Source of the DNA: an uncultured Gammaproteobacteria bacterium
GTDB lineage: Bacteria; Patescibacteriota; Patescibacteriia; UBA11705
Reading direction: 5' to 3'
DNA: 64,000 nucleotides
Assembly: GCA_964413735.1 (NCBI GenBank)
Contig: CAYPSS010000003.1
Location: 106,626 to 170,625 of the forward strand
A program made the position numbers and the translations under genes. Positions 3-44,299 of this stretch are shown here, in pieces; position 1 is the first letter of the stretch, and every line of letters starts with the position of its first letter. A model generated the notes under the pieces. That model had not been told where the DNA came from. It searched no databases and saw only the letters and a list, made by a program, of their open reading frames with translations.

Positions 3-1823
3 TTATGGTCTGGGAGTTTCATTTTTTAGGCCAAAACATGGTCCATAATATTCAAAGTGCATTCCATCAGCTCTAAATGGGTCTGCCCAAGCCCAGCCAG
101 CCCAATAAAATTTGTGTTTTACCGCTAAATCAATCATTCCATCAGGGATTGACCAGGCAGCATTTTTTCCGGCTAAACACCCGGTAATTATTTGATCCAT
201 ACGTTCATATAAAACATAAGGATCTGATTTGAAATAATCTCCATAGGTACCATTTTTCATTTTTTCTAAAGTATCTTTGTATCTATTACAAACACTGGTG
301 GCATCACCGCCTTTGGATGATGGTGATTGAGAAGTTTTGTTATCATTATTGCTCAAAGTCATAATATCAATTGCTTGACCGGTTAAATGTGGGTCAGCAT
401 ACACTGTTTTTAAGGGTGCCTTGGTGCCAGAACAGGTTTTTCTTTGAACCCCAATCCCACATCCTAAATTTGATTGAGCAATATCGTTTGGTTTCCATGT
501 TCCGCTAAGTGATGGAGCTTTTCCGGCGGCTCGATCCCAAATGTATTGCATATATCCTTTTACTTCTGGATCGGTACTATTGATTAAATCATTAGTAAAA
601 GCTTGCCAAGCAGATACTGCTTGTTTATGAACTGTGACAACATAGCCTTTGCCACTGGCTTTTGCTTTGTTTACACGGTCAATGGTTTCTTGGTCATCAT
701 GTACTTGTAATTGAGGGGTAGATCTGTCCCAAAATTTATCTAATCCTAAAATACTGATTCTGGTAGTTGAAGAGCTGATTTTATCTCCCATTTTTATTCC
801 ACTTGGGAAAAAATAACCATTTAAGCAGGTTTCGTCTTTTACAATACCATAAACATAATTATTGTTTTTATAAGTTGCCGGACCAACGACTGGTTTTACT
901 GTCGAAGGTAAATCTGATGAATCAGGTAGTTCTTTCCCCGAGGGGAAATCCGGACCTTCTTCATATTCAGGGATATCTTTTAATTCAATCCCTTGAATTA
1001 TTTCAATCTGCGCTGATTTTAAACTGGTGATTTCCGGATTTACCGTATATAAGATAATATAAGAACAAATTAATAATAAAAGTCCTAAAACTGATTTGGT
1101 CATGGTCTCTTTTGCTTTATTAATATTTCCGGGATTACCGGCGGAAATAATAAATTGCACACCACCGATCACAATAAATAATATGGCGAAAATTACACCC
1201 AAGATTAACATTTTTTTGTAAATTCCGGCAATGCATTCACTAATCCAGGGAATGTTGCTTTCTTGTCCGGGGACAAAATCAACATCAGATAAATTACAGA
1301 CTGCTCCCAAGACATAAAGAGTTGGTTTGGTGAATTTAGGGGTGGTGGTTCCGCCGAGTATGGATGAACTTTCTTGTTTTTCCGTAACTGACTCCACGAT
1401 TTGTTTAACATCAAGTGGTGGAACCATGGCAAATGCAGGATTAGACACCGGGCCGGTATAATAACAATAATGTAAATCTCTTGTTGCAACTACGCCATCT
1501 TTGCATTCCCAAAGAGAGGCATATGAACCATAAGTTATTGCACATTGATTTGCATCATCACAAACACAGAAATTATCATCCTCAATATCATCCGAGCTGT
1601 CTTCACAATCAAATTCCAATACGCCGGTAGCTTGACCATTAATCACGCTTTGCCAACGACAATCATTGTTAGTCATAGTTGAACTGCATTTTTTCCCAAT
1701 CGGGGTATCGTTTATTTTGGTAAATGGAGTAGTTCGTTCGCCGGGCGTTTGGGCGTTGACAACGTCAGTAGTTATTAATAGGGCAAAAATAAATAACAAG
1801 ATTAATAAAAACCATTTTTTCAT
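3..1823 (-). CDS. Secreted/membrane protein with C-terminal M15-family (VanY-like, D-Ala-D-Ala carboxypeptidase-type) peptidase domain; C-terminus runs off the window edge
   Basis: N-terminal signal peptide MKKWFLLILLFIFALLITTDVVNA. Cys-rich extracellular segment. Two adjacent hydrophobic helices (LILGVIFAILFIVIGGVQFII / VLGLLLLICSYIILY). C-terminal motifs DPHLTGQAIDI (HxxGxAxD) and DGMHFEY typical of Zn peptidase family M15. No stop before position 3. Confidence 0.6.
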   Translation of the reverse strand: MKKWFLLILLFIFALLITTDVVNAQTPGERTTPFTKINDTPIGKKCSSTMTNNDCRWQSVINGQATGVLEFDCEDSSDDIEDDNFCVCDDANQCAITYGSYASLWECKDGVVATRDLHYCYYTGPVSNPAFAMVPPLDVKQIVESVTEKQESSSILGGTTTPKFTKPTLYVLGAVCNLSDVDFVPGQESNIPWISECIAGIYKKMLILGVIFAILFIVIGGVQFIISAGNPGNINKAKETMTKSVLGLLLLICSYIILYTVNPEITSLKSAQIEIIQGIELKDIPEYEEGPDFPSGKELPDSSDLPSTVKPVVGPATYKNNNYVYGIVKDETCLNGYFFPSGIKMGDKISSSTTRISILGLDKFWDRSTPQLQVHDDQETIDRVNKAKASGKGYVVTVHKQAVSAWQAFTNDLINSTDPEVKGYMQYIWDRAAGKAPSLSGTWKPNDIAQSNLGCGIGVQRKTCSGTKAPLKTVYADPHLTGQAIDIMTLSNNDNKTSQSPSSKGGDATSVCNRYKDTLEKMKNGTYGDYFKSDPYVLYERMDQIITGCLAGKNAAWSIPDGMIDLAVKHKFYWAGWAWADPFRADGMHFEYYGPCFGLKNETPRP

Positions 1824-3724: not shown

Positions 3725-6115
3725 TCAAGATTTAATTTTGTTTTTTGATCTTTTATTAAGTTCAATGATTAAATTTTCCACTTCTCGATCGATTATTTGC
3801 CGAACTGTTCGGGCGCCTTGGCCAATTTTTTGCGATTCTTGTGCCAAGCGGGATAAGTTTTTACTGAGTTTGGTTATGTTTATCAAAGATTTTTTTTCTT
3901 CCAGTTGTTTTAAGTGTTTTTTGAATATTTTTTGTAGTGTAATTGCCTCTAAGTTTTCAAATACAATAATTTTATCAAGGCGATTGATAAATTCGGGGCG
4001 AAAATGTTTTTTTGCTTCCTCAACAATTTTTTCGATTAAGGCTGAATTTGTTTGTTGGTTACCAAAGCCCCAAGAAATATTTTTGTTGAATAAATCGGCG
4101 CCTAAATTGGCGGTCATAATAATAATCGTGTTTCTGAAATTAATTTTTTTGCCGGTGGCATCGGTTAAATAGCCGTCTTCTAAAATTTGCAATAATAAGT
4201 TTAAAACTTCCGGATGTGCTTTGTCGATTTCATCAAATAAAATTAAACTGTAAGGACGTTTTTTAATGGCGTCGGTCAGTTTGTTTTCTTCGCGATATCC
4301 CACATAACCGGCCGGTGCCCCAATCAGCTTTGAAGCGTTGAATTTTTCACTGAATTCCGCCATGTCAATTCGGATGAATGATTCTTGATCGCGAAATAAT
4401 TTTTCCGCTAAAATTTTTGCGGTATAAGTTTTGCCCACTCCGCTTGGTCCTAAAAATAGAAACGAGGCTTGCGGTCGATTTTCATCTTGCAGTCCGAGTT
4501 TTGATTTTTTTAATGAATTGATAATTGTGGTTAGGGCTTTATCTTGACCGAAAATTTCATTTTGTAATTTAATTTTAATTTTATCCAAGGTTTGCCAATC
4601 GTTTCCCAGTAATTCACTGATCGGAATTTGGGTTTTGGCTGAAATGATTTCCTGTATGGTTTGGGCGTCGACGATTGGTGGATTTTTTGTTAATTGAAGA
4701 TCGCGAGTTTTTTGTAATTTTGTTAACCGTTTTTTAAGAATGATTTGCTCGGCTTTTATTTTAATGGCTAGGTTGAAGTTTTCATTTAGAACAGCTTTTT
4801 CTTTCTCTGTATTCAGCTTGTTGATTTCCAATTCCAAATTATTGATATTAGTAAATAACTTATTATTATTCATCTGTATTTTTTGTTTGGCGGCGGCTTC
4901 GTCAAGCAGGTCGATGGCCTTGTCCGGAAACAATTTATCTTGTATATAGCGTTTACTTAAATTTAAGGCCGTAATAATGGCCGCGTCGTCAAATTTTACC
5001 TGGTGGTAATTTTCATAATTGCTCTTTACCCCAAATAAAATTTCTTTTGTTTCGGTGATTGTTGGTTCGGTTAAAATTATGGGTTGGAACCGTCGTTCCA
5101 GCGCCGCATCTTTTTCAATGAATTTTTTATATTCTTCCATGGTGGTGGCGCCAATACAACGCAGTTGACCACGCGCTAAGAGTGGTTTGAGCAAATTTGC
5201 CGCGTCCAAACTGCCATTACTGGAACCGGCACCGACAATATTATGTAATTCATCAATGAATAAAATTGTCTGCGGGTCATTTTTGATTTCATCAATAATT
5301 TCTTTGAGACGATTTTCAAAATCACCGCGATACATGGTTCCAGCTACCAAAGAGCCGAGGTCCAGAGAAATGATTTTTTTATTTTTCAAAATATTCGGGA
5401 CTTCGCCGTTTACGATTTTCTTGGCTAATCCTTCCACTAATGCGGTTTTCCCTACTCCCGGATCACCTAAAATCAAGGGATTATTTTTGTCTTTACGACA
5501 TAAAATTTGAATTAAACGATCAAGCTCCTGGTCGCGTTTAATAATCGGGTTGATTGATTTTTGATATTCAATATCCGTTAAATCAACGGAAAAATATTTT
5601 AATGTCCCTGAACCGGGTTTGTTCGTAAAAGGGTCTTGACCCTGTAAAATTAAATTTTCCGGGTTATTGATTTGGGTTAAATGCGTATCGCCTTTTAATA
5701 AATTATCTAAGTCATTTTTTAATTTTTCAAGATTGATTTTATAATTTTGTAAAATATATTTTATCAAATATGGCGGGTCGTCGAGTAATACGGCCAAACA
5801 ATGTTCCGTACCGACAAAAGTGTGTTTTTGACTAAACGCCAAATTAAAAGCACTGATCAGCAAGTCTTCGATGGTTTTGATTCGTGATTTCGATTCTATT
5901 GATGGTAGATTAAGAGAAAGCAAATCAGCTAATTTTTTTTCATCATTATTTTTGTCTTGAAGAAAAAATTTATTGGCCAAAGTGTTCGGTTCATGAAATA
6001 AGGCAATAATAAAATCATTCAATTCGATGACGGAACGATTTTTTTTAAGGGCGAACTTTTTCGCTTGTTCCAAACAGTGGCGCAAATTGTCGGATAGTTT
6101 TTCTAAAAAATCCAT
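3725..6115 (-). CDS. clpC: Clp-family double AAA+ ATPase/chaperone (ClpC/ClpB type) with Clp N-domain
   Basis: Two Walker A motifs (GDPGVGKT and GPSGVGKT). Clp_N-like N-terminus. Short coiled-coil middle domain between the AAA modules, closer in length to ClpC than ClpB. 796 aa. Confidence 0.85.
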   Translation of the reverse strand: MDFLEKLSDNLRHCLEQAKKFALKKNRSVIELNDFIIALFHEPNTLANKFFLQDKNNDEKKLADLLSLNLPSIESKSRIKTIEDLLISAFNLAFSQKHTFVGTEHCLAVLLDDPPYLIKYILQNYKINLEKLKNDLDNLLKGDTHLTQINNPENLILQGQDPFTNKPGSGTLKYFSVDLTDIEYQKSINPIIKRDQELDRLIQILCRKDKNNPLILGDPGVGKTALVEGLAKKIVNGEVPNILKNKKIISLDLGSLVAGTMYRGDFENRLKEIIDEIKNDPQTILFIDELHNIVGAGSSNGSLDAANLLKPLLARGQLRCIGATTMEEYKKFIEKDAALERRFQPIILTEPTITETKEILFGVKSNYENYHQVKFDDAAIITALNLSKRYIQDKLFPDKAIDLLDEAAAKQKIQMNNNKLFTNINNLELEINKLNTEKEKAVLNENFNLAIKIKAEQIILKKRLTKLQKTRDLQLTKNPPIVDAQTIQEIISAKTQIPISELLGNDWQTLDKIKIKLQNEIFGQDKALTTIINSLKKSKLGLQDENRPQASFLFLGPSGVGKTYTAKILAEKLFRDQESFIRIDMAEFSEKFNASKLIGAPAGYVGYREENKLTDAIKKRPYSLILFDEIDKAHPEVLNLLLQILEDGYLTDATGKKINFRNTIIIMTANLGADLFNKNISWGFGNQQTNSALIEKIVEEAKKHFRPEFINRLDKIIVFENLEAITLQKIFKKHLKQLEEKKSLINITKLSKNLSRLAQESQKIGQGARTVRQIIDREVENLIIELNKRSKNKIKS

Positions 6116-6120
6116 AAATA

Positions 6121-6999
6121 TTAGGCGGTCATTTGGCGTAATTTGTTAATTCGTTCATTAAGCGGAGGATGAGTGTCAAATAAGTTGGTTAAAGACTTTT
6201 TCCCGGCAAACGGACTGGCGATAAATAAATGTGCGGTAGCGGTATTGGCTCTTTGCATGGGGGCATGATACTGGGAAATTTTTTCCAGTGCATCGGCCAA
6301 AGCTTGCGGATAACGCGTGAGAAGTGCGCCATCAGCATCAGCCAAGTATTCGCGTTTACGAGAAATAGCCAGTTGGATGATTTTGGCGATAAGCGGTGAT
6401 AAAATCATGAGTACCAAACCAACAATCAAAATAATTCCATTGCCATTTTTGTTGTCGCTTTTTCGTCCAAAAAAAGTACTTCGAACAAAAATGTCACTTA
6501 ATAACGCCACAATTCCCACCAACACAATCACCACCATCATTAATCTGATATCATAGTTTTTAATGTGTGATAATTCATGAGCAATGACTCCTTCCAGTTC
6601 GGTGCGATTAAGCTTTTCCAATAAACCGGTAGTTAGCGCAATGGAAGCATGTTGTGGATCACGACCGGTGGCAAAAGCATTGGGAGCCGAGTCATTGATC
6701 AAATATATTTTTGGCATGGGTAATCCGGCGGTAATACAAAGATTTTCCACTAAGCGATAAATTTCCACATTTTCATCTCTTTTAATTTCCTTTGCTCCGG
6801 TGGTGGAAAGTGCCACTTTGTCACCTTGATAATAACTTACTAAGGCCATAATCAATGAGATAATGGTGGCAATGATTAGCGCCGAATATCCAAGTTCACT
6901 GTAAAGACTGAAAAAATATCCCAGCAATATGATAAAAGCACAAAATATAGTGATGAGGATAACGGTTCTTTTTTTGTTGGAATCAATTTGATTGTACAT
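6121..6999 (-). CDS. htpX: Zinc metalloprotease HtpX (peptidase M48)
   Basis: N-terminal TM helices, HELSHI (HExxH) motif, typical HtpX length. Adjacent to lemA, as is common. Confidence 0.85.
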   Translation of the reverse strand: MYNQIDSNKKRTVILITIFCAFIILLGYFFSLYSELGYSALIIATIISLIMALVSYYQGDKVALSTTGAKEIKRDENVEIYRLVENLCITAGLPMPKIYLINDSAPNAFATGRDPQHASIALTTGLLEKLNRTELEGVIAHELSHIKNYDIRLMMVVIVLVGIVALLSDIFVRSTFFGRKSDNKNGNGIILIVGLVLMILSPLIAKIIQLAISRKREYLADADGALLTRYPQALADALEKISQYHAPMQRANTATAHLFIASPFAGKKSLTNLFDTHPPLNERINKLRQMTA

Positions 7000-7053
7000 A
7001 ATAATATTTTTAGGACTGCAAATCCGGAAAGGATTTGCAGAGAAAAAATACTA

Positions 7054-7611
7054 TTAGAATTGAACATTAATATTTTGTTTTTCGTCTTGAGAAGCTTCGA
7101 AAAATTCATATTTCTTAAAGCCCAAGAAATTGGCGACCAAGTTGTTGGGGAAAATTTGAATTTTGGTATTAAAGTCACGAACATTGCCATTATAAAAACG
7201 ACGAGAAGCTTGGATTTTATTTTCCGTATCGGAAAGTTCGCCTTGTAATTGCAAGAAGTTTTGGTTAGCTTTGAGTTCCGGATAATTTTCCGCCAAAGCG
7301 AAAATTGATTTCAAGGTATTGCTCAAAGCGTTTTCCGCTTCGCCTTTGGCTTCAACTCCTTGAGTTTGCATGGCTTTGGTGCGTGCCTCGGTCACTTTTT
7401 CAAATGTTTCTTTTTCGTGTGAAGCATATCCTTTGACCGTGTTGACTAAATTGGGGATCAAGTCATAGCGTCGTTTGAGCTGAACATCAATATCGCTCCA
7501 TGCTTCATCGGTTCGATTTTTGAATTTGATCAAGCCGTTGTAAACGCCGATTAACCACAAAACGACGATTACCAATACGGCTAGAACAATGTAAAAAACA
7601 GTTGTTCCCAT
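7054..7611 (-). CDS. lemA: LemA family membrane protein
   Basis: N-terminal TM anchor followed by the conserved LemA core (YNGLIKFKNRTDEAWSDIDVQLKRRYDLIPNLV). Confidence 0.85.
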   Translation of the reverse strand: MGTTVFYIVLAVLVIVVLWLIGVYNGLIKFKNRTDEAWSDIDVQLKRRYDLIPNLVNTVKGYASHEKETFEKVTEARTKAMQTQGVEAKGEAENALSNTLKSIFALAENYPELKANQNFLQLQGELSDTENKIQASRRFYNGNVRDFNTKIQIFPNNLVANFLGFKKYEFFEASQDEKQNINVQF

Positions 7612-12838: not shown

Positions 12839-13984
12839 ATGATTTTAACGATTGTGGTATTTGTGGCCGTGTTAGCGTTGTTGATTTTTGTTCATGAAAT
12901 CGGACATTATACAACAGCAAAAATTTTTAAAGTTAAGGCTGAAGAATTTGGCTTTGGTTTACCACCTCGACTTTTCGGTTGGACGAAAAAAAACGGCAAA
13001 AGAAAATTTTTCTGGGGTAACAAAGAAGTGGAAAAACTGGAATCTGAAGATACGGTTTGGTCAATCAATTGGTTACCACTCGGTGGTTTTGTAAAGATCA
13101 AAGGAGAGGATGGTGAAAATCGTGAAGCGGACAGTTTTGCTTTGCAAAAAGCGTGGAAACGAACCATTATTTTAGCATCCGGGGTTTTTATGAATTTGGT
13201 TTTGGCGGTGGTGTTGTTATCAGCGGTTTTGATGATCGGTGCGCCTCAGGTGATTGATAATGAAAACCAATCGGCGCAAGATGCGAAAATTCAAATTTTG
13301 CAAGTATTGCCTGATTCTCCTGCGGCCTTGGCCGGTTTGAAAACCGGTGACGTAATTTTAAAAGTTGATGATTTTAATCCAGCTGAAACTTCACAAGTAG
13401 CTGATTATGTAGCTGATAAAAGTGATCAGACAGTTAATTTGACGATTGATCGTTATGGTGAAGAGTTATCATTGTCATTAATACCGAAAATAAATGCTGA
13501 CCTCGGACAAGCGCAAATGGGGGTGTCTTTGATTAAGGCGGGAATTGTTTCTTATCCGTGGTATGAAGCGATTTGGCGTGGTTTGAAATGGACAATTTCC
13601 ATGACCGGGATGATTTTGGTGGCTTTTTATCAAGTGATTAAAAATTTGATTGTTGGTTTGCCGGCCGGAATTGAAGTGGCCGGTCCGATCGGAATTGCGG
13701 CCATTACCGGGCAAGCGGCTCGTATGGGATTGGTTTATGTAATGCAGTTTGCAGCTATGTTATCAATTAATTTGGCGATTATTAATATTTTGCCTTTTCC
13801 GGCACTTGATGGCGGGCGAATTTTGTTTATTATTATTGAGAAAATTCGTCGTCGCCCGGTTAGTCAAAAAATTGAAAGTATAATCCATGCTGTTGGTTTT
13901 ACGGTGTTGATCGGTTTAATGCTTTTTGTTACCGGACGAGATATTTTCAATGTCAGTGATTTGATGAAAAATTTATTTGGTTAA
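12839..13984 (+). CDS. rseP: RIP zinc metalloprotease (site-2 protease) RseP
   Basis: HEIGHY (HExxH) in the first TM helix, PDZ segment (LAGLKTGDVILKVDD), LDGG motif near the C-terminus. Confidence 0.85.
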   Translation: MILTIVVFVAVLALLIFVHEIGHYTTAKIFKVKAEEFGFGLPPRLFGWTKKNGKRKFFWGNKEVEKLESEDTVWSINWLPLGGFVKIKGEDGENREADSFALQKAWKRTIILASGVFMNLVLAVVLLSAVLMIGAPQVIDNENQSAQDAKIQILQVLPDSPAALAGLKTGDVILKVDDFNPAETSQVADYVADKSDQTVNLTIDRYGEELSLSLIPKINADLGQAQMGVSLIKAGIVSYPWYEAIWRGLKWTISMTGMILVAFYQVIKNLIVGLPAGIEVAGPIGIAAITGQAARMGLVYVMQFAAMLSINLAIINILPFPALDGGRILFIIIEKIRRRPVSQKIESIIHAVGFTVLIGLMLFVTGRDIFNVSDLMKNLFG

Positions 13985-15257: not shown

Positions 15258-16256
15258 ATGAAAAAAGTGGCGATCAATGGTTTTGGCCGAATCGGTCGAG
15301 CCAGTTTGAAAATTATTTTGGATAAACACAAAAATTTTGAGGTGGTGGCGATTAATGATTTGGGTGATTTGAATAATTTAGCTTATTTATTGCGGTTTGA
15401 TACGGCTCAAGGTCGTTATAACAAAAAAGTAAGTGTCAGCGGATCAAATTTAATTGTCGGAACAAAAAAAATTCCTTTTTTCAGTGAAAAAGAACCGGAA
15501 AAATTACCGTGGAAAAAATTAAAAGTAGATGTGGTGTTGGAATGTACCGGTGTCTTTACCAAAAAAGAAGATGCTTCAAAGCATCTTAGAGCCGGTGCTA
15601 AACAGGTAATAATATCGGCGCCATCAAAAAGTGAAGGGGTGATTACCGTGGTACGTGGGGTTAATGAAAAATTAGCCAAAGGTCAAAAAGTGATTGCCAA
15701 TGCCAGTTGTACTACCAATTGTACCGCACCCGTCATGTCGGTCCTGGATCAAGCGTTTGGCGTGGAAAAAGCTTTGTTAACCACTATTCATGCGGTGACT
15801 GCCAGTCAAAGAACGGTTGATTTGCCGGTAGCCAAGGATTGGCGTGAAGGTCGTTCGGTGATTGGAAATATGATTCCCACTAGTACCGGGGCAGCCAAAG
15901 CCACTGCTTTGACTTTACCTCAATTGTCAGAGAAATTTGATGGTGTATCAGTGAGAGTGCCGGTGGTTTGTGGATCGTTGATTGATGTGGTGGCGTTATT
16001 GAAAAAAAATGTGACAGTTGAACAAGTTAATGAAGCATTTAAAAAATTTGCAAAAAAGCCTCAATTTAAAAATTTATTGGAGGTATCCGAACATGATGAA
16101 TTGGTTTCCAGCGATATTGTTAATACCACCGCTTCGGCAATCGTGGATTTGGCTTTTACTCGAGTGGTTGATGGTAATTTGGTTAAGGTTATGGCCTGGT
16201 ATGATAATGAATGGGGTTATTCCAATCGCTTAGTGGAAATGATTGCTTATATTTAA
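15258..16256 (+). CDS. gap: Glyceraldehyde-3-phosphate dehydrogenase
   Basis: NGFGRIGR Rossmann N-terminus, active-site ASCTTNC, WYDNEWGYS C-terminus. Confidence 0.9.
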   Translation: MKKVAINGFGRIGRASLKIILDKHKNFEVVAINDLGDLNNLAYLLRFDTAQGRYNKKVSVSGSNLIVGTKKIPFFSEKEPEKLPWKKLKVDVVLECTGVFTKKEDASKHLRAGAKQVIISAPSKSEGVITVVRGVNEKLAKGQKVIANASCTTNCTAPVMSVLDQAFGVEKALLTTIHAVTASQRTVDLPVAKDWREGRSVIGNMIPTSTGAAKATALTLPQLSEKFDGVSVRVPVVCGSLIDVVALLKKNVTVEQVNEAFKKFAKKPQFKNLLEVSEHDELVSSDIVNTTASAIVDLAFTRVVDGNLVKVMAWYDNEWGYSNRLVEMIAYI

Positions 16257-17049
16257 TATGTGGTTATTGTATTTTGGTACGGCATTTTTGGGTTTGATCA
16301 TCGGAAGTTTTTTGAATGTGTTGATTGTGCGTTTGCCGGAAAAACAAACCTGGTGGGGAAAAGCGCGTTCTATTTGTTGGCGCTGTTTGAAAGTTTTGCC
16401 TTTACCTGATTTGGTTCCTGTTTTGAGTTTCCTGCGATTAAAGGGAAAATGTCGTTTTTGTCATACTAAAATATCTTGGCAATATCCGTTGGTTGAACTG
16501 GCCACCATGATTTTGTTTGTTTTGGCTTTATGGCAAAATAATTTGATTGATTATCATGACTATTTCAAATTAGTGGCTGATTGGTTGTTTTTGTCAATTT
16601 TATTGGTGGTTTTTGTTATTGATTTAAAACATTTGCTGATTATTGATCGGATGATTTATGTGGTAATGCCAATAGTTTTTTTCTTTAATTGGTATTTATC
16701 CGGATGGAGCTGGTGGGCAGTCGGGGATATGCTTTTGGCCGGTATGATTGGCTTTTTGTTTTATTGGTTACAATATTTTATTTCAAAAGGAAGATGGGTT
16801 GGGGATGGTGATATGCGTTTGGCTGCCTTACTCGGGTTGATGCTGGGAACTTCAGGTTTGTGGATTACGCTTTTGGGCGCGTATGTTTTGGGTGGATTGA
16901 TCGCTATCATTTTATTGTTAACCGGTAAAAGCAAATGGGGAGCGCAGTTGCCTATGGGTGCGTTTCTTACTCCTCTGGCGGCTGCCATGGTACTTTATGG
17001 AAATGAAGTTTGGAATTTTTATTGGAATTTAATGTATAAATTTTTATGA
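16243..17049 (+). CDS. pilD: Type IV prepilin peptidase (A24 family)
   Basis: N-terminal CxxC...CxxC zinc motif (CWRC...CRFC), polytopic membrane topology, catalytic GDGDMRL box. Confidence 0.8.
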   Translation: MLIFNMWLLYFGTAFLGLIIGSFLNVLIVRLPEKQTWWGKARSICWRCLKVLPLPDLVPVLSFLRLKGKCRFCHTKISWQYPLVELATMILFVLALWQNNLIDYHDYFKLVADWLFLSILLVVFVIDLKHLLIIDRMIYVVMPIVFFFNWYLSGWSWWAVGDMLLAGMIGFLFYWLQYFISKGRWVGDGDMRLAALLGLMLGTSGLWITLLGAYVLGGLIAIILLLTGKSKWGAQLPMGAFLTPLAAAMVLYGNEVWNFYWNLMYKFL

Positions 17050-37622: not shown

Positions 37623-37826
37623 ATGAATTTTTTTATTTTGGGACATACTTTACAAACAATCGGAGCTATTGCCATTGCTTTTACTGTCCTGCGCGTGCAT
37701 CAGCGCATGAAATTGGAAAGGAAAATTGATGCTAAAGTTTTTAAGGAAATAAAACTGGAACAATCAGTGGTGACTTTTAGCATTATTTTTATTTTTGTTG
37801 GATATTTACTGCTTATTATATCATGA
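37623..37826 (+). CDS. Small hypothetical two-TM membrane protein
   Basis: 67-aa ORF with two hydrophobic helices. Weak support. Confidence 0.3.
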   Translation: MNFFILGHTLQTIGAIAIAFTVLRVHQRMKLERKIDAKVFKEIKLEQSVVTFSIIFIFVGYLLLIIS

Positions 37827-39622: not shown

Positions 39623-39669
39623 TTATTTTTGAGTGTTAAAGAAAATTATGGTATAATTATTTAAGATTT

Positions 39670-40053
39670 ATGGTAACTCAAAATATTTTTTTCAAAACAG
39701 CGAAATTTATTGCCAAAGATTTGATTTTGGATGTTTTGTATTGGCCGATTTGGTGGTATTCCGGTGGGATGGTTCGAGCTTGGCAAAGAATGATTGATAC
39801 CATCAAACAGGGAAACGATGAATTGGCGTTGTTGGTGTGGATGAAAAATATATTTCGCCCAATGTTCGGAGATTATTCTTTTCAAGGAAGGCTGATCAGT
39901 TTTTTTATGCGAGTGATTCAGATTATCGGTCGAGGAATTTTCTTTTTGTTTTGGGTAGCATTTGCCTTTTTATGGTTTTTGGTATGGCTTGCTTTGCCTT
40001 TATTTATTTTAGCCCAACTTTTAATCAGTTTAGGATTGGTTAAATTATTATGA
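39670..40053 (+). CDS. Small polytopic membrane protein (hypothetical), translationally coupled to the downstream Clp ATPase
   Basis: 127 aa, three or four TM helices. Extended -10 tggtataat upstream. Stop overlaps the next start (ATGA). Confidence 0.5.
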   Translation: MVTQNIFFKTAKFIAKDLILDVLYWPIWWYSGGMVRAWQRMIDTIKQGNDELALLVWMKNIFRPMFGDYSFQGRLISFFMRVIQIIGRGIFFLFWVAFAFLWFLVWLALPLFILAQLLISLGLVKLL

Positions 40054-42821
40054 CGGAAAATTATAATCAAGAAAAAAATCTAATTGAATTTATTGTTTGC
40101 TCTAATTGTGACGGGCGAGGTTTTATTCAAAATGCCAAATGTCCGGTTTGTGGCGGTTTGGCAACGGTTGCTCATTTGAATGGGAAATATTTGTATTGGG
40201 GAAAAAAGATAGATCGTTTTAATATCATGACCGATCGAACAATCAATGTTATTAATAAAGTCATTAATTTGTTGTTAATGCTCTTTGGTTTGTTTGGTGT
40301 TTTTACGGTGGCTTATGTGGCTTTTCAAAATCAATTCATGGAAATACTCAGGCTGGATTATTGGCGTACTCCTTCATGGGAAAAGGCGATTTTTTGGACC
40401 GCGGTTTTGCTTAGTTTGTATTTGTATTATCGCTTGGCCATGGAAAGCTCTCCTCGGAAAAGTGTGCTTTTAAAACTGACGAAAAAAAACATTATTAATC
40501 AGTCGCAAGATTGGCAAGCTATCAAGCGACAGCCAAAGCGAAATTTAATTGATGTTTCTTTGGCGTTTGATCAATCGGCGCTCAGATTGGTGGAAGAGGC
40601 TTGGTTTTTGGCGCGGAGTTTTAATCAAGCAAAATTGGAGCGAGTGCATTTTTTTGCCACTTTACCGGCATTTGATTCGGGTGCGTTGATTTTCGGGCGA
40701 TTGGGAATTCGTTTTGATGTTTTCAAAGAAAAAATCGGTCGATTAATGAGTTGGCATTTGCAACAAAAAGGTTCAACTACCGATTTGGCGCCGGAAATTT
40801 ATCGTTTGTTGATTGGGGCATATTTTTTGGCTTATCGGGAGAACAAAAGCAAGGTGGAAATTGAGGAAATAATATTAAGTTTGGTAACCAAAGAAAATTA
40901 TCCACCGGAAGTTTTATCCCAAGATTATGTAGAGAAAATTTTAATTGATTTGGAGTTAAATTATCAAAAGGTTATCAATGTGGTGGAGTGGAGCCGTTTG
41001 CAACAAAAAATGCGGACCAATTTATCGCGTTTTCGTTCTCGGGCACGATATAAACCGAAATCCGGCCTGGATCGAGCAATGACCGGAATCGCCACCCCAT
41101 ATTTGGATCAATTCAGTGAAGATTTAACCAAGTTGGCACGCGCCGGTTACCTGTTCCCGTGTATTGGGCGTGAAGCGGAATTTGAACAAATATTTCGAGT
41201 GTTTGAAGGGAGTCGCGATGGAGTTTTACTTCTTGGTAATCCGGGGGTGGGACGTACCACCATTATTGAAGGTTTAGCGCAACGTATGGTGGAAGAATCT
41301 GTGCCTGAAGCATTGCAAGATAAGAGGTTGGTGAGAATCAGTTTGTCTCAATTGATTAGTGGTGTGACACCGGCCATGGCACAAGAGCGCTTTTTGTTGA
41401 TTATCAACGAAGTGGCACAATCGCAAAATATTGTGGTTGTGGTGGAAGATTTGCATAACGCGGTGGGAATTAGTGGCGAGGGAAGTAATTTGGATTTGTC
41501 GGAAGTTTTTGCTGAAGTATTAAAGAAAAACTTATTTTTAGTGGTGGCCACCAGTACGCCCGGTGATTATACTTCTTACATTGAACGACGCTCCTTAGGT
41601 GAGGTTTTTCAGCCAATTAAAGTAAAGGAATTGGAGTTAAATGATGCGATTCAAGTATTGGAAGCTAAAAGCGGACCGATTGAATACAAAAACAATGTAT
41701 ATTTTTCTTATGATAGTATTGAAAAAGCGGCGGTCTTATCCGATAAATATTTACATGATCAATATTTGCCGGAAAAAGCTTTAACTATTTTGGAAAATGT
41801 GGCGGTTAAGGTCAGTAAAGAAAAAGGCCCTCGTTCAGTGATTACCGCCGAAGATGTGGCGGTACTAATTGCAGAACAAACGGGTATTCAGGTTAGAAAA
41901 GTAACTGAATCCGAAGCGGATAAATTATTGAATTTGGAGCAAAATATTCATGCCCGTGTGATTGGTCAGGATGAAGCGGTGAAAATGGTGTCTGCCAGCT
42001 TGCGTCGTTCACGCGCGGAATTGCGTGATGAAAAACGACCGATTTCCAGTATGTTATTTTTAGGTCCGACCGGTGTGGGTAAAACCGAATTGGCGAAAAC
42101 CGTGGCTGAAGTTTACTTCGGTGCCGAGGATACCATGTTGCGATTTGATATGAGTGAATATCAAGAGCAGAGTAGTATCGGTCGTTTAATTGGAACTCCG
42201 GAAACCAATGGTATTTTGACCGAAGCAGTCAGACAAAAGCCTTTTTCTCTTGTTTTATTCGATGAGGTGGAAAAAGCTCATCGCGATATTTTAAATTTAT
42301 TTTTGCAAGTCATGGATGATGGTCGTTTAACTGACGGAAGAGGTAATACCATTGATTTTACCAATACTATTATTATTATGACCAGTAATGCGGGTGCGCA
42401 AATCATTCAGGATGATATTCGTGCCGGCGTGGAAATGGAAACTATTAAACAAAAATTAATCAACGAACAATTGAAAGCTTATTTTCGTCCGGAATTACTT
42501 AATCGATTTGATGGTATTATTGTTTTCACCCCATTAACCATGAATGAAATAATTGCCATTGCCAGATTATTGGCGAAAAAAATAATCAAAAAATTGGAAG
42601 ACAAAGAAATATATTTAACGATTTCCGATGCCGCGATCGCTGAGCTTGCGGAAATGGGTTATGACCCGCAATTTGGGGCGCGTCCGCTTCGTCGGGTGAT
42701 TCAAGAAAGGGTGGATGATTTACTGGCCAATGCTTTGCTAACCGGCAAGGTGACTCGACGCGATAAAATCACATTGGAACCAGGTGGTGAATTAAAAATA
42801 GAAAAGGCGGAAAGTATTTAA
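40050..42821 (+). CDS. Membrane-anchored Clp-family double AAA+ ATPase with N-terminal zinc ribbon
   Basis: CSNCDGRG...CPVCGG zinc ribbon, two TM helices, Clp_N-like repeats, Walker A GNPGVGRT and GPTGVGKT, very short linker between the AAA modules. 923 aa. Confidence 0.85.
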   Translation: MTENYNQEKNLIEFIVCSNCDGRGFIQNAKCPVCGGLATVAHLNGKYLYWGKKIDRFNIMTDRTINVINKVINLLLMLFGLFGVFTVAYVAFQNQFMEILRLDYWRTPSWEKAIFWTAVLLSLYLYYRLAMESSPRKSVLLKLTKKNIINQSQDWQAIKRQPKRNLIDVSLAFDQSALRLVEEAWFLARSFNQAKLERVHFFATLPAFDSGALIFGRLGIRFDVFKEKIGRLMSWHLQQKGSTTDLAPEIYRLLIGAYFLAYRENKSKVEIEEIILSLVTKENYPPEVLSQDYVEKILIDLELNYQKVINVVEWSRLQQKMRTNLSRFRSRARYKPKSGLDRAMTGIATPYLDQFSEDLTKLARAGYLFPCIGREAEFEQIFRVFEGSRDGVLLLGNPGVGRTTIIEGLAQRMVEESVPEALQDKRLVRISLSQLISGVTPAMAQERFLLIINEVAQSQNIVVVVEDLHNAVGISGEGSNLDLSEVFAEVLKKNLFLVVATSTPGDYTSYIERRSLGEVFQPIKVKELELNDAIQVLEAKSGPIEYKNNVYFSYDSIEKAAVLSDKYLHDQYLPEKALTILENVAVKVSKEKGPRSVITAEDVAVLIAEQTGIQVRKVTESEADKLLNLEQNIHARVIGQDEAVKMVSASLRRSRAELRDEKRPISSMLFLGPTGVGKTELAKTVAEVYFGAEDTMLRFDMSEYQEQSSIGRLIGTPETNGILTEAVRQKPFSLVLFDEVEKAHRDILNLFLQVMDDGRLTDGRGNTIDFTNTIIIMTSNAGAQIIQDDIRAGVEMETIKQKLINEQLKAYFRPELLNRFDGIIVFTPLTMNEIIAIARLLAKKIIKKLEDKEIYLTISDAAIAELAEMGYDPQFGARPLRRVIQERVDDLLANALLTGKVTRRDKITLEPGGELKIEKAESI

Positions 42822-42835
42822 ATTTTAAAATATGA

Positions 42836-42866
42836 AAAAGCTTCGCGTGGCGAAGCTTTTGATTTT
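42836..42866. terminator. Bidirectional terminator
   Basis: aagcttcgc-gtg-gcgaagctt perfect 9-bp stem with T-rich tail, between convergent genes. Confidence 0.6.
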
Positions 42867-42869
42867 GGT

Positions 42870-43097
42870 TTAACAAGAAAGATCATAAATTTTCTTAATG
42901 GCGCCGGTTCGAATTCTGACAGTTCCATGTTCAACATTTTCATTAATAATTTCAATGGAGTTATCCGGGAAAATGCGAGTTAAGGTACCGCGAAAAATCG
43001 GGAATTCGCTGTAGGAAGTGTGAATTTCAATGTATTTGCCGATAAGATCTTGATAATTTGGTCTTTTACCGGTACTTGGTGAAGTTCGTGAAAGCAT
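42870..43097 (-). CDS. Small protein (75 aa), possible Sm-like/Hfq-like fold
   Basis: Internal ATG at 43097 preceded by GGAG (ggagatcATG). The IEIHT...FRGTLTRIFPDNSIEIIN pattern is reminiscent of Sm motifs. Weak. Confidence 0.4.
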   Translation of the reverse strand: MLSRTSPSTGKRPNYQDLIGKYIEIHTSYSEFPIFRGTLTRIFPDNSIEIINENVEHGTVRIRTGAIKKIYDLSC

Positions 43098-43198
43098 GAT
43101 CTCCTCATGTTTGATTTTTTTATGATATAACAAATCAGGTAATTAGTCAATTGTAAATTATTGAAAAAATAATTGAATTCAGTTAAAATGCCAGTATT

Positions 43199-44299
43199 AT
43201 GACCATAATTGATTATTTATTTCCATTTTTTCTGAGCTTTATTTTTGGGTTGTTGATAACGCCATTCGTTATTTGGTTAGCGAGAAAATATAATGTTATT
43301 GATCATCCGAACAATGAAAGGAAAATTCATCGGAAAAATATTCCACTCATGGGTGGTTTGGCGATATTTTTAGCGGTCAATGGCGCGTTAGCGGTTTATT
43401 ATTATTTTAGCAATCAATTGTTTGATGGTTCATTTAAACCGAAAAATTTAATTGGTATATTAATTGCCGGGATGATTTTAATGATAGGTGGAATTCTAGA
43501 TGACAAATTTAATCTTAAACCAAAATTGCAATTACTGTTTCCTTTATTGGCAATTATGAGCATTATTGTTAGCGGTATTGGCATTGATTGGGTGGCCAAT
43601 CCTTTTAATAGTCAAGAATTGTGGCGACTGGATGAGTCGGTGACTATTTTGTTCTGGTTTCAAGGATTGCCATATAAATTAACCTTATTTGCCGATATTT
43701 TTACTTTAATTTGGCTGATGGCCATGATGTATACTACCAAGTTACTTGATGGCTTGGATGGTTTGGTCAGTGGTTTGGCGGTCATTGGATCATTGTTTAT
43801 ATTTTTAGCTTCGTTAGTGGTGGAAAATCCTCAATATAATGTGGCTTTGCTGGCCTTGATTTTTGCCGGAGCGGTTTTGGCTTTTTGGCTGTTTAATTTT
43901 AATCCGGCCAAAGTATTTTTGGGTGAAGGAGGTAGTTTGTATATTGGTTTTATGCTTGGGGTGTTATCTATCATTAGTGGTAGCAAGGTGGCGATAACCC
44001 TGATTATTATGGGGATTCCTTTGCTTGATATGCTTTGGACTATTGTTCGGCGTTTAATGGAACACAAAAATCCTTTGACTTCAGCGGACAAAAAGCATTT
44101 GCACCATCGATTTTTAGCCGCCGGTTTTTCAGTTAAGCAAACCAGTTTAATTTTGTATATTATTTCGCTAATTTTAGGCGTTTCTGCCTTGCTATTACAA
44201 CAATATAATTACGGATATTTAGTGGTGGGCTTGGCCGTTTTGTTATTTTTCATGTTAATTACCGGATATTTGTATAAAATTACCAAAGAAAAGTCATGA
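43199..44299 (+). CDS. Glycosyltransferase family 4 polyprenyl-phosphate sugar-1-phosphate transferase (MraY/WecA-like)
   Basis: About 10 TM helices, DDKFNL motif in a cytoplasmic loop. 366 aa. Confidence 0.75.
   Translation: MTIIDYLFPFFLSFIFGLLITPFVIWLARKYNVIDHPNNERKIHRKNIPLMGGLAIFLAVNGALAVYYYFSNQLFDGSFKPKNLIGILIAGMILMIGGILDDKFNLKPKLQLLFPLLAIMSIIVSGIGIDWVANPFNSQELWRLDESVTILFWFQGLPYKLTLFADIFTLIWLMAMMYTTKLLDGLDGLVSGLAVIGSLFIFLASLVVENPQYNVALLALIFAGAVLAFWLFNFNPAKVFLGEGGSLYIGFMLGVLSIISGSKVAITLIIMGIPLLDMLWTIVRRLMEHKNPLTSADKKHLHHRFLAAGFSVKQTSLILYIISLILGVSALLLQQYNYGYLVVGLAVLLFFMLITGYLYKITKEKS

Follow-up and report, generated by a model that had tools for sequence, protein, structure and literature searches.

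What might a Clp-type ATPase do if it sat in the membrane and had lost much of the apparatus with which its relatives thread proteins? The question is raised by two adjoining genes in a 64,000-nucleotide stretch of DNA, here called the window (positions 106,626 to 170,625 of contig CAYPSS010000003.1, assembly GCA_964413735.1), from a genome that is deposited as an uncultured Gammaproteobacteria bacterium and placed by GTDB in the Patescibacteriota. The two open reading frames (ORFs) encode proteins of 127 and 923 residues. Their boundaries and their ATGA overlap, as given in an initial annotation made from the sequence, are borne out by direct reading of the DNA: the first ORF ends in ...AAA TTA TTA TGA and the second begins, in the other frame, with ATG ACG GAA. 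That annotation took the larger protein for an additional, specialised unfoldase tethered to the membrane. The finding is more unusual than this, i.e. the ATPase site is perfect, yet the pore loops, a second active ring and the protease dock have been dispensed with. Clp/Hsp100 proteins are textbook soluble threading machines, and among those that have been characterised we know of none that is integral to the membrane. The reading that we favour, and that has in our view about an even chance of being right, is that of a ClpP-independent, single-motor, membrane-bound remodeller which has a small membrane protein as its partner and probably serves the biogenesis of the envelope. A description of this membrane-ATPase family was not found in a full-text literature search.

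One degenerate and one catalytically intact AAA+ module

The 923-residue protein is a member of the class-I, double-ring Clp/Hsp100 superfamily. Pfam places AAA_2 (E = 1.6e-54), AAA_lid_9 and ClpB_D2-small (PF10431) on it, and the best solved relatives are ClpC of Bacillus subtilis and Staphylococcus aureus, followed by ClpB. The AlphaFold2 model, for which 94 family sequences were used as input (mean predicted local distance difference test score, pLDDT, 88), shows the parts in the order zinc ribbon, two helices, helical domain, linker helix, first AAA+ module (D1), second AAA+ module (D2) and D2-small domain; Foldseek superposes the D1-D2 core on ClpC and ClpB hexamer subunits with a TM-score of 0.88 (target-normalised) at 3.4 A. 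NCBIfam models of the better known subfamilies also align, all of them far under their equivalog cut-offs: ClpB (TIGR03346) with 554 bits against 1232, ClpA (TIGR02639) with 475 against 993, ClpK with 460 and ClpG with 449 against 1900 each, and ClpV with 429 against 885.

The likeness to ClpC (B. subtilis, S. aureus, and ClpC1 of Mycobacterium tuberculosis) is the greatest both in sequence (456 bits in phmmer, about 32-42% identity) and in fold (Foldseek E = 1e-59), and the order of a Clp_N-like domain, D1, D2 and D2-small domain is the same in both. However, the 923-residue protein lacks the M-domain, the VGF loop, the catalytic Glu, Arg fingers and pore Tyr of D1, and the GYVG of D2, and it has a zinc knuckle, a two-helix anchor and a small membrane partner where ClpC has MecA- or McsB-type adaptors.

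A protein search with the ATPase returned 120 clusters, nearly all of them 857-944 residues long, with 88-100% query coverage and 40-86% identity. All relatives that carry a name belong to the Patescibacteria, the closest named ones being from Falkowbacteria and Kuenenbacteria at about 60% identity. The clusters and the ATPases of the fetched loci were combined into a family set of 175 non-redundant sequences (at least 175 distinct ones), to which the family counts given below refer.

D1 lacks the Walker A Lys, the Walker B Asp-Glu pair and the Arg fingers by which an active AAA+ module is recognised. Its Walker A reads GNPGVGRT(T) where ClpC has GEPGVGKT, i.e. Lys is replaced by Arg; its Walker B reads VEDLH (within VVVVEDLH) for IDELH, with DE turned into ED; the Arg-finger motif ERRF has become GEVF; and the pore loop is TPAMAQE (within SGVTPAMAQER), with no aromatic residue, for KYRGEFE. 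The same holds, with variations, throughout the family. The Walker A residue is Lys in 116 and Arg in 55 of the 175 sequences, the Walker B Asp position is variable, and the catalytic position is occupied by Asn (110 sequences) or Asp (51) and by Glu in 3 cases. Arg occurs at the finger positions in none of the members, and aromatic residues are likewise absent from all D1 pore loops (0 out of 175).

D2 is canonical in its Walker A (K678), Walker B (D738/E739), sensor-1 (N780), Arg finger (R819) and sensor-2, and by these catalytic residues it is predicted to be an active-type ATPase module. K678, T679, D738, E739, N780, R819, R878 and R882 are invariant (175 out of 175). Pore loop 1 of the same module is, however, cut down to GTPETNG (residues 715-721), which aligns as GTP------ETNG with GSPPGYVGYDEGG of ClpC and is 6-7 residues under the length of the ClpC loop and without a Tyr. 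Full-length loops with GAPPGY or GAPPGF are kept in about 35 of the 175 sequences, none of which falls within the clade of the window protein, a clade characterized by the 7-residue D2 loop together with the Walker A Arg of D1. Some other members have GAPPGT, GAPPGL or GAPPGM at this place, and Tyr-less loops of 7-9 residues, rich in Gly/Ser/Pro, are found in about 125. A distance-based neighbour-joining tree was calculated without the loop columns and rooted on the ClpC-like protein of the window as the single outgroup; it carries no support values. The canonical loops are scattered in it among clades with 7-, 8- and 9-residue loops, so the pore-loop Tyr of D2 appears to have been lost repeatedly and independently, the number of losses being provisional.

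The inter-AAA linker, described initially as very short and free of a coiled coil, is indeed 56 residues long and has no M-domain, i.e. the alignment jumps from residue 403 to residue 463 of ClpC; the same length is found in 170 of the 175 sequences. The suggested look at the IGF/LGF loop through which ClpP is bound gave a negative answer. By alignment to ClpC, no ClpP-docking tripeptide (hGF/IGF/LGF) is present in D2 residues 781-812, the VGF of ClpC being aligned with a gapped RAG-V (RAG--V). The segment between sensor-1 and FRPE, where a ClpP loop would lie, has a fixed, short length of 32 residues in 175 out of 175 sequences, and a tripeptide of the form hG[FLIM] is seen in 6. The absence of a visible ClpP gene from the window was also noted before; a six-frame regular-expression scan of the 64 kb, which is a limited test, found no ClpP signature motif either.

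The window does encode a canonical ClpC-like protein on the minus strand (Table 1), to which the 923-residue ATPase is, as had been proposed, an addition. The two proteins are 29% identical, and the ClpC-like one holds all the features that are missing from the other. Database names of the relatives include 'ATP-dependent Clp protease ATP-binding subunit ClpC' and 'AAA family ATPase', and the ClpC-type annotation is probably misleading for genes of the membrane-ATPase family. The protein has neither the M-domain of ClpB/Hsp104 and ClpC/ClpE nor the ClpP loop of ClpA, ClpC, ClpE and ClpX, and it stays under the cut-offs of ClpV, ClpK and ClpG. It resembles ClpA in having two AAA+ rings, a short linker and no coiled-coil M-domain, and its residues 179-907 align to the ClpA model end to end (model positions 7-730). 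In ClpA, D1 serves mainly for hexamer assembly and D2 performs most of the hydrolysis. Unlike the 923-residue protein, ClpA has an IGL docking loop, an active Walker B in both rings and pore-loop tyrosines, and is soluble.

These results bear directly on the initial view, in which the protein is a conventional membrane-tethered unfoldase of the ClpC/ClpE kind that extracts membrane proteins on its own or feeds them to ClpP, the 127-residue protein being its adaptor. That the best matches in sequence and in fold are to ClpC speaks for this view, as do the Clp_N-like domain and the N-terminal zinc module, which as in ClpE and ClpX are typical docking modules for substrates and adaptors, and the invariant ATPase residues of D2. 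Moreover, the roughly 35 members with a GAPPGY-type loop mean that the family ancestor may have worked in this manner. In the window protein and its whole clade, however, the D2 loop is of the Tyr-less GTPETNG kind with the GYVG deleted, an aromatic residue is present in the D1 pore of no member, and the catalytic Glu and the Arg fingers of D1 are missing; the label of an unfoldase is not supported for a protein of this make. As to the delivery of substrates to a protease, there is no hGF tripeptide in the 923-residue protein and no room for a docking loop, and the limited regular-expression test turned up no ClpP gene in the window. We therefore regard the conventional view as unlikely. A role in membrane quality control is possible, but the canonical threading apparatus that it would require is missing in the window protein.

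N-terminal extension and the small partner protein

The protein begins with the motif C17-x2-C20-x-G-x-G ... C31-x2-C34-x-G, in agreement with the CxxCxGxG zinc motif reported in the initial annotation. The module is beta-rich and confidently predicted in the AlphaFold2 model, and the conserved motif makes it a candidate zinc-binding site. Its best Pfam matches are all sub-threshold (BSD2_CRD 20.4 bits against a cut-off of 27, DnaJ_CXXCXGXG 19.9 against 32.7 and Anti-TRAP 16.2 against 32). The four Cys are kept in 151-154 of the 175 family members, whereas 21 members have no N-terminal Cys at all; at least one of these, in locus L026, still has the N-terminal region, so that the loss of the Cys is real in some lineages. 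A four-Cys module at the extreme N terminus of a Clp ATPase is otherwise known from ClpE and ClpX. In ClpE the residues are C3, C6, C29 and C32; zinc is bound by the domain, which has a share in substrate targeting (PMC13125188). The Cys pairs are 10 residues apart in the 923-residue protein against 22 in ClpE, and it is only in the former that a membrane hairpin parts the zinc module from the remainder. In ClpE, on the other hand, there are an M-domain, a VGF loop and, in the second AAA module, a functional pore Tyr that is described as crucial for threading (PMC13125188).

Two hydrophobic segments follow the zinc knuckle. The first (residues 64-94) reaches a Kyte-Doolittle 19-residue mean of 2.39 and is robust family-wide; the second, at about residues 110-132, corresponds to a second peak of 1.64 in the family-averaged hydropathy profile. 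AlphaFold2 models a helix at each of the two places (block pLDDT about 86-95) and a short loop helix between them, and the second membrane helix contains an FW...YLxYR motif. The flanking charges, averaged over the family, are +1.2 before the first transmembrane (TM) helix, -0.6 in the loop and +0.5 after the second, and the stretch after the second helix is strongly basic in the window protein; this fits a hairpin with both ends in the cytoplasm (N-in/C-in). Hydropathy, flanking charge and the model agree with the presence of two TM helices in the ATPase, and of one or more in its partner. It is thus very probable that the ATPase is membrane-tethered, as the initial annotation had it.

An N-terminal anchor by which an AAA+ ring is held to the cytoplasmic side of the membrane is reminiscent of FtsH and Msp1/ATAD1. 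The anchor of FtsH consists of two helices, and FtsH also carries a protease domain; FtsH and Msp1/ATAD1 belong to another AAA+ clade and have a single ring with essential aromatic pore loops. The 923-residue protein, in contrast, is a Clp/Hsp100 double ring with no protease domain, no docking loop and, in its lineage, no aromatic pore loop.

The hairpin is followed by a Clp_N-like helical domain. Pfam does not detect Clp_N in the window sequence, but the alignment to the ClpA model begins at residue 179, PF02861 matches in most homologues, and residues 169-300 are all-helical in the AlphaFold2 model.

Could the whole extension be an annotation artefact, the real start lying downstream of the zinc ribbon and the membrane helices, so that the protein would be an ordinary cytosolic Clp? 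The 21 members with no N-terminal Cys and some called proteins that are 50-60 residues shorter would agree with this. The extension, with its four Cys, LYWG and FW...YLxYR, is nevertheless conserved in relatives at 40-86% identity and about 99% coverage, i.e. down to 40% identity, and it is modelled with high confidence. Furthermore, the ATG of the 923-residue ORF overlaps the preceding stop codon, as it does in many relatives, and members with no Cys (the one in L026 included) still hold the membrane helices. A mis-called start is hence hardly credible, and the extension named in the initial annotation is genuine. When the N-terminal 175 residues were used in a word-indexed protein search, no significant match came up; as the full-length relatives clearly share the region, the cause seems to lie in the tool.

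The 127-residue protein matches no model in Pfam, NCBIfam or PADLOC. The word-indexed search returned 91 clusters of unnamed relatives, and a profile search of 1.84 billion representatives gave 695 matches at E <= 1e-3, of which 348 are at E <= 1e-10. Among the matches listed, the relatives are nearly all stand-alone proteins of about 90-170 residues. The conserved motifs are PxWWYxxG and a loop of the form KNxFxPM(F/Y)G...GRxISFxMRxxQ. In the AlphaFold2 model (pLDDT 92) this loop joins two helices of about 50 residues each (residues 3-52 and 71-120) into a hairpin, for which a Foldseek comparison with the PDB found only generic helical hairpins (best E = 3). Since only the C-terminal 40 or so residues (about 86-124) are strongly hydrophobic, the product is read as a membrane protein, but the polytopic topology proposed initially is not established; a C-terminal anchor carrying a cytoplasmic helical hairpin seems at least as likely as a polytopic protein.

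Gene pair, neighbourhood and mode of action

The initial annotation also suggested a two-gene module, and the conservation of the pair supports this. With the ATPase as bait, a homologous gene encoding 122-128 residues was found directly upstream in 4 out of 4 loci (Falkowbacteria, an unnamed group, Komeilibacteria and Magasanikbacteria), the contexts further upstream being different in each (transketolase, dNK, TGT and mraZ-rsmH-ftsL). With the 127-residue protein as bait, one genome per GTDB species was scanned; relatives were found in 564 species genomes, and the pair statistics were taken from the 80 best loci. The ATPase lies directly downstream of the small gene in 77 of the 79 evaluable loci. 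The 80 loci comprise 68 complete pairs, 9 pairs that are cut by a contig end with the ATPase start still visible, 1 locus with no room downstream and 2 in which no ATPase gene adjoins the small one. In 54 of the 68 complete pairs the spacing is between -11 and +12 nt, and 21 overlap. A 414-residue ORF (P0279) that joins a homologue of the small protein to an ATPase N terminus was considered as a Rosetta-stone fusion and rejected as an artefact of a frameshift-ridden contig (L085:4001-8230). About seven short ORFs stand there in place of an intact ATPase gene, and the frame of the small gene runs on into the N-terminal part of the ATPase.

A recurrent neighbour downstream is a WecA/TagO-like glycosyltransferase of the GT4 type, present in 48 of the 68 complete pairs and separated from the ATPase by no more than 30 nt in 23. 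In NCBIfam the window enzyme scores 113.6 bits with WecA and 68.7 with MraY, both below cut-off. MraY, a candidate prompted by the dcw-like context of some loci, was set aside on these scores; the HLHHR motif is presumably also closer to the HIHH of WecA than to the HHH of MraY. Directly upstream of the pair, mraZ, rsmH and ftsL-like genes are found in 25-26 of 84 loci. This context (L004:1754-3451 and about 25 others) represents one large Magasanikbacteria-like clade with a 9-residue D2 loop, in which the pair occupies the place that is usual for ftsI in the dcw cluster. Another observation comes from locus L026 (4231-7935), where a single ORF of 1234 residues contains the ATPase (residues 2-903) in frame with a WecA-like GT4 enzyme (residues 904-1231); the first TM helix of the latter is missing, as are the Cys of the ATPase. 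This ORF could be a genuine fusion, for which the topology would be plausible, or it could have arisen in a single metagenome-assembled genome (MAG) through an error of assembly or an indel.

Such linkage raises the possibility that the protein does no mechanical work on a polypeptide and serves as a scaffold or assembly factor under the control of ATP. The nucleotide state of D2 would then switch on and off its partner in the membrane and/or the neighbouring transferase of the WecA/TagO type or proteins of the divisome. The repeated loss of the pore-loop Tyr next to strictly kept ATPase residues would be understandable on these terms, and so would the tight operon link to the GT4 gene, the single ORF of L026 and the position of the pair right after mraZ-rsmH-ftsL-like genes. 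The GT4 link is not universal, however (48 out of 68), a terminator-like hairpin separates the genes in the window, and the fusion comes from one metagenome bin and could be an assembly artefact. A pure scaffold, which overlaps with the reading that we favour and differs from it chiefly by denying the remodelling of a client, is in our judgement rather improbable.

An anti-phage defence or conflict module, in which a ClpB-like ATPase acts with a small membrane effector in the manner of the DolB-type Dodola system, was suggested by PADLOC matches of DolB (E = 3.7e-37) and PDC-M37B (3.5e-34) to residues 607-790 or so; abortive-infection systems, too, commonly consist of two genes of which one encodes a small membrane protein. 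The matches, however, cover nothing but the generic AAA+ domain of D2, and the 127-residue protein has none. In many lineages the locus lies among housekeeping genes (transketolase, GT4, L21, RecR, DnaB, mraZ/rsmH), the divergence of its sequence appears to be vertical, and the partner has relatives in 564 species genomes; neither is typical of mobile defence islands. We consider a defence function very improbable.

Returning to the membrane-bound remodeller, we can picture its operation as follows, where hexamer formation, topology, partner interaction, ClpP independence, mode of action and client are all what we infer. The two genes would encode a Patescibacteria-specific membrane complex, the existence of which is suggested by their linkage. 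The large subunit would be a class-I Clp/Hsp100 paralogue held in the cytoplasmic membrane by a two-helix hairpin. As this hairpin appears to be inserted after the zinc knuckle and ahead of the Clp_N-like domain, these two parts and the two AAA+ modules would all be cytoplasmic and close to the membrane surface. D1, which keeps a glycine-rich P-loop but has lost the hydrolytic machinery, would most likely serve only as a nucleotide-stabilised assembly ring, and D2 would be the sole motor. Since the protein apparently cannot dock ClpP, it would not be the ATPase of a Clp protease. It would be co-produced with the 127-residue membrane protein, which it most likely binds, and the conserved cytoplasmic helical hairpin and loop of this partner may act as an adaptor, a regulator or a client-presenting subunit. 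Relatives that keep a GAPPGY loop in D2 could thread substrates; in the window lineage with its GTPETNG loop, the ATP cycle of D2 probably clamps, releases or remodels a bound, membrane-proximal client and does not unfold it processively. The recurrent operon link to the WecA/TagO-like gene, and mraZ-rsmH-ftsL in one large clade, are circumstantial but point to biogenesis of the cell envelope or of the division site.

Precedent for ATP-driven work of this kind may be sought among the Torsins. These are membrane-associated members of the HCLR (Clp-like) clade which lack the pore-loop consensus, have been judged unlikely to thread and have a membrane-spanning partner (PMC4999309). Because the absence of threading has been argued in the same way for them, we extend the argument to the lineage of the 923-residue protein. 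The crucial part in threading that is ascribed to the AAA2 pore-loop Tyr of ClpE (PMC13125188) agrees with this. The likeness concerns a possible mode of action and not family membership. Torsins (with LAP1/LULL1) are single-ring proteins of the eukaryotic ER lumen that borrow an Arg finger from their cofactor, whereas D2 of the 923-residue protein has its own Arg finger (R819, present in all 175 sequences) as well as sensor-2, and the 127-residue partner is unrelated to LAP1.

Several points weigh against the picture that we have drawn. The inference of Tyr losses depends on a quickly built neighbour-joining tree of distances, which has a single outgroup and lacks support values. That the pore-loop Tyr is gone is no strict proof that translocation is gone as well; other pore-facing residues may matter. 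ClpP may bind the 923-residue protein in a non-canonical way. The topology has hydropathy, flanking charge and AlphaFold2 helices as its whole basis, and the second hydrophobic segment lies below the Kyte-Doolittle threshold of 1.6 in the window protein itself. What links the 127- and 923-residue proteins is gene adjacency, and in two loci (L028:2866-3171 and L034:4983-5342) the small gene is followed by a Sua5/YrdC-like gene with no ATPase adjoining. L21, RecR, YbaB and DnaB recur near the pair, so adjacency could in part reflect the general synteny of small genomes. In the window, moreover, the GT4 gene is split from the pair by a terminator-like hairpin and 377 nt, which makes the link to the envelope indirect there.

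As regards the MAGs behind L028 and L034, either the partner can exist uncoupled from the ATPase or the ATPase is elsewhere in those genomes.

The family combines an anchor in the membrane and a dedicated membrane partner with a first ring that is permanently degenerate and a second one in which the ATPase site is perfectly conserved while the gripping Tyr appears to have been lost repeatedly. It can be regarded as a natural experiment on what an Hsp100 ring is capable of without threading, and it may show how ultra-small, largely uncultivated bacteria run envelope synthesis or membrane proteostasis with a minimal number of genes. A bolder proposal, to which we attach a low probability, is that of an undescribed Hsp100 class: a ring integrated into the membrane, of whose two tiers one is dead and the other live, which has shed its pore loops repeatedly and exerts, together with a small subunit, an ATP-driven, non-threading control over envelope or division-site assembly. 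Such a class would, for instance, gate or activate a WecA/TagO-like initiating transferase or handle divisome proteins of the FtsL type.

Features of the locus and other genes of the window

The coordinates are collected in Table 1. The promoter-like site is a pattern match that ends 12 nt upstream of the ATG of the small gene, and promoter-like sites in these AT-rich surroundings are not enriched over shuffled sequences. The terminator-like hairpin, graded strong, starts 15 nt past the stop codon of the ATPase gene. Since the two patterns bracket just these two genes, the pair looks like a self-contained bicistronic unit in the source genome. The GT4 gene starts 377 nt downstream of the ATPase, beyond the hairpin, and has a promoter-like site of its own. 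The genes around the pair in the window are a split transketolase, the GT4 glycosyltransferase, L21, RecR and DnaB.

Table 1. Positions of the gene pair, of the parts of the 923-residue protein and of related features, numbered from the first nucleotide of the window
Feature	Coordinates	Strand	Basis
Promoter-like site TTGAGT-17 nt-TATAAT with TG extension	39629..39657	+	consensus scan, 10/12 matches
Gene of the 127-residue partner protein	39670..40053	+	ORF
ATGA start/stop overlap of the two ORFs	40050..40053	+	direct sequence reading
Gene of the 923-residue membrane-anchored (very probably) Clp/Hsp100-type double-ring AAA+ protein	40050..42821	+	ORF, Pfam, ClpC/ClpB matches
Putative zinc knuckle, residues 14-49	40089..40196	+	CxxCxGxG...CxxCxG motifs, C17/C20/C31/C34
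Predicted membrane hairpin: helix 56-93, short external loop, helix 110-132	40215..40445	+	hydropathy, AlphaFold2
Clp_N-like helical N-domain, residues 169-300, then long linker helix, residues 305-334	40554..40949	+	TIGR02639, PF02861 in homologues, AlphaFold2
D1 AAA+ module, residues 345-590, degenerate	41082..41819	+	alignments to ClpC and to the ClpC-like protein of the window
D2 AAA+ module, residues 600-825	41847..42524	+	alignments, family statistics
D2-small domain, residues 829-908, sensor-2 GARPLRR	42534..42773	+	Pfam PF10431, E = 6.9e-22
Terminator-like hairpin, 11-bp stem, 5 G-C pairs	42836..42860	readable on both strands	pattern match only
WecA/TagO-like GT4 polyprenyl-phosphate sugar-1-phosphate transferase	43199..44299	+	Pfam Glycos_transf_4
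Canonical ClpC-like paralogue	3725..6115	-	GDPGVGKT, MYRG, GYVGY, ILFIDELH, ALERRF, M-domain-length linker, WGF loop

An antisense ORF of 87 residues (42870-43133, minus strand) lies beside the bidirectional terminator-like hairpin; it matches no family in Pfam, NCBIfam or PADLOC. In locus L001 the equivalent gap is filled by a minus-strand ORF of 190 residues. A hydrophobic ORF of 67 residues (37623-37826) is located upstream of the split transketolase genes of the window, and an unannotated gene of the same length is likewise upstream of the transketolase genes in a Falkowbacteria relative (L001:298-501). The product may be a conserved small membrane protein.

We note that some taxonomic labels attached to the locus seem to be placeholders or wrong. 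Many MAGs named 'uncultured Gammaproteobacteria bacterium' (binchicken, SRP co-assemblies) carry the Patescibacteria-type locus, and so do one entry titled 'Acutalibacteraceae' and one titled 'Udaeobacter' (among L006-L083).

The canonical ClpC-like gene forms a row with genes for an HtpX-like M48 membrane peptidase (6121..6999) and a LemA-family protein (7054..7611) on the minus strand (3725-7611), which looks like a small proteostasis cluster apart from the ATPase pair. GC skew is positive in nearly all 2-kb bins of the window (1-64000) and the cumulative skew climbs steadily; the genes are mostly on the plus strand, and skew and strand bias fit a single replichore with neither origin nor terminus inside. 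Elsewhere in the window there are genes for a protein with a T4SS-pilin-like domain (3-1823, minus strand), a prepilin peptidase of the A24 family (16243-17049) and an RseP-like M50 site-2 protease with a PDZ domain (12839-13984).

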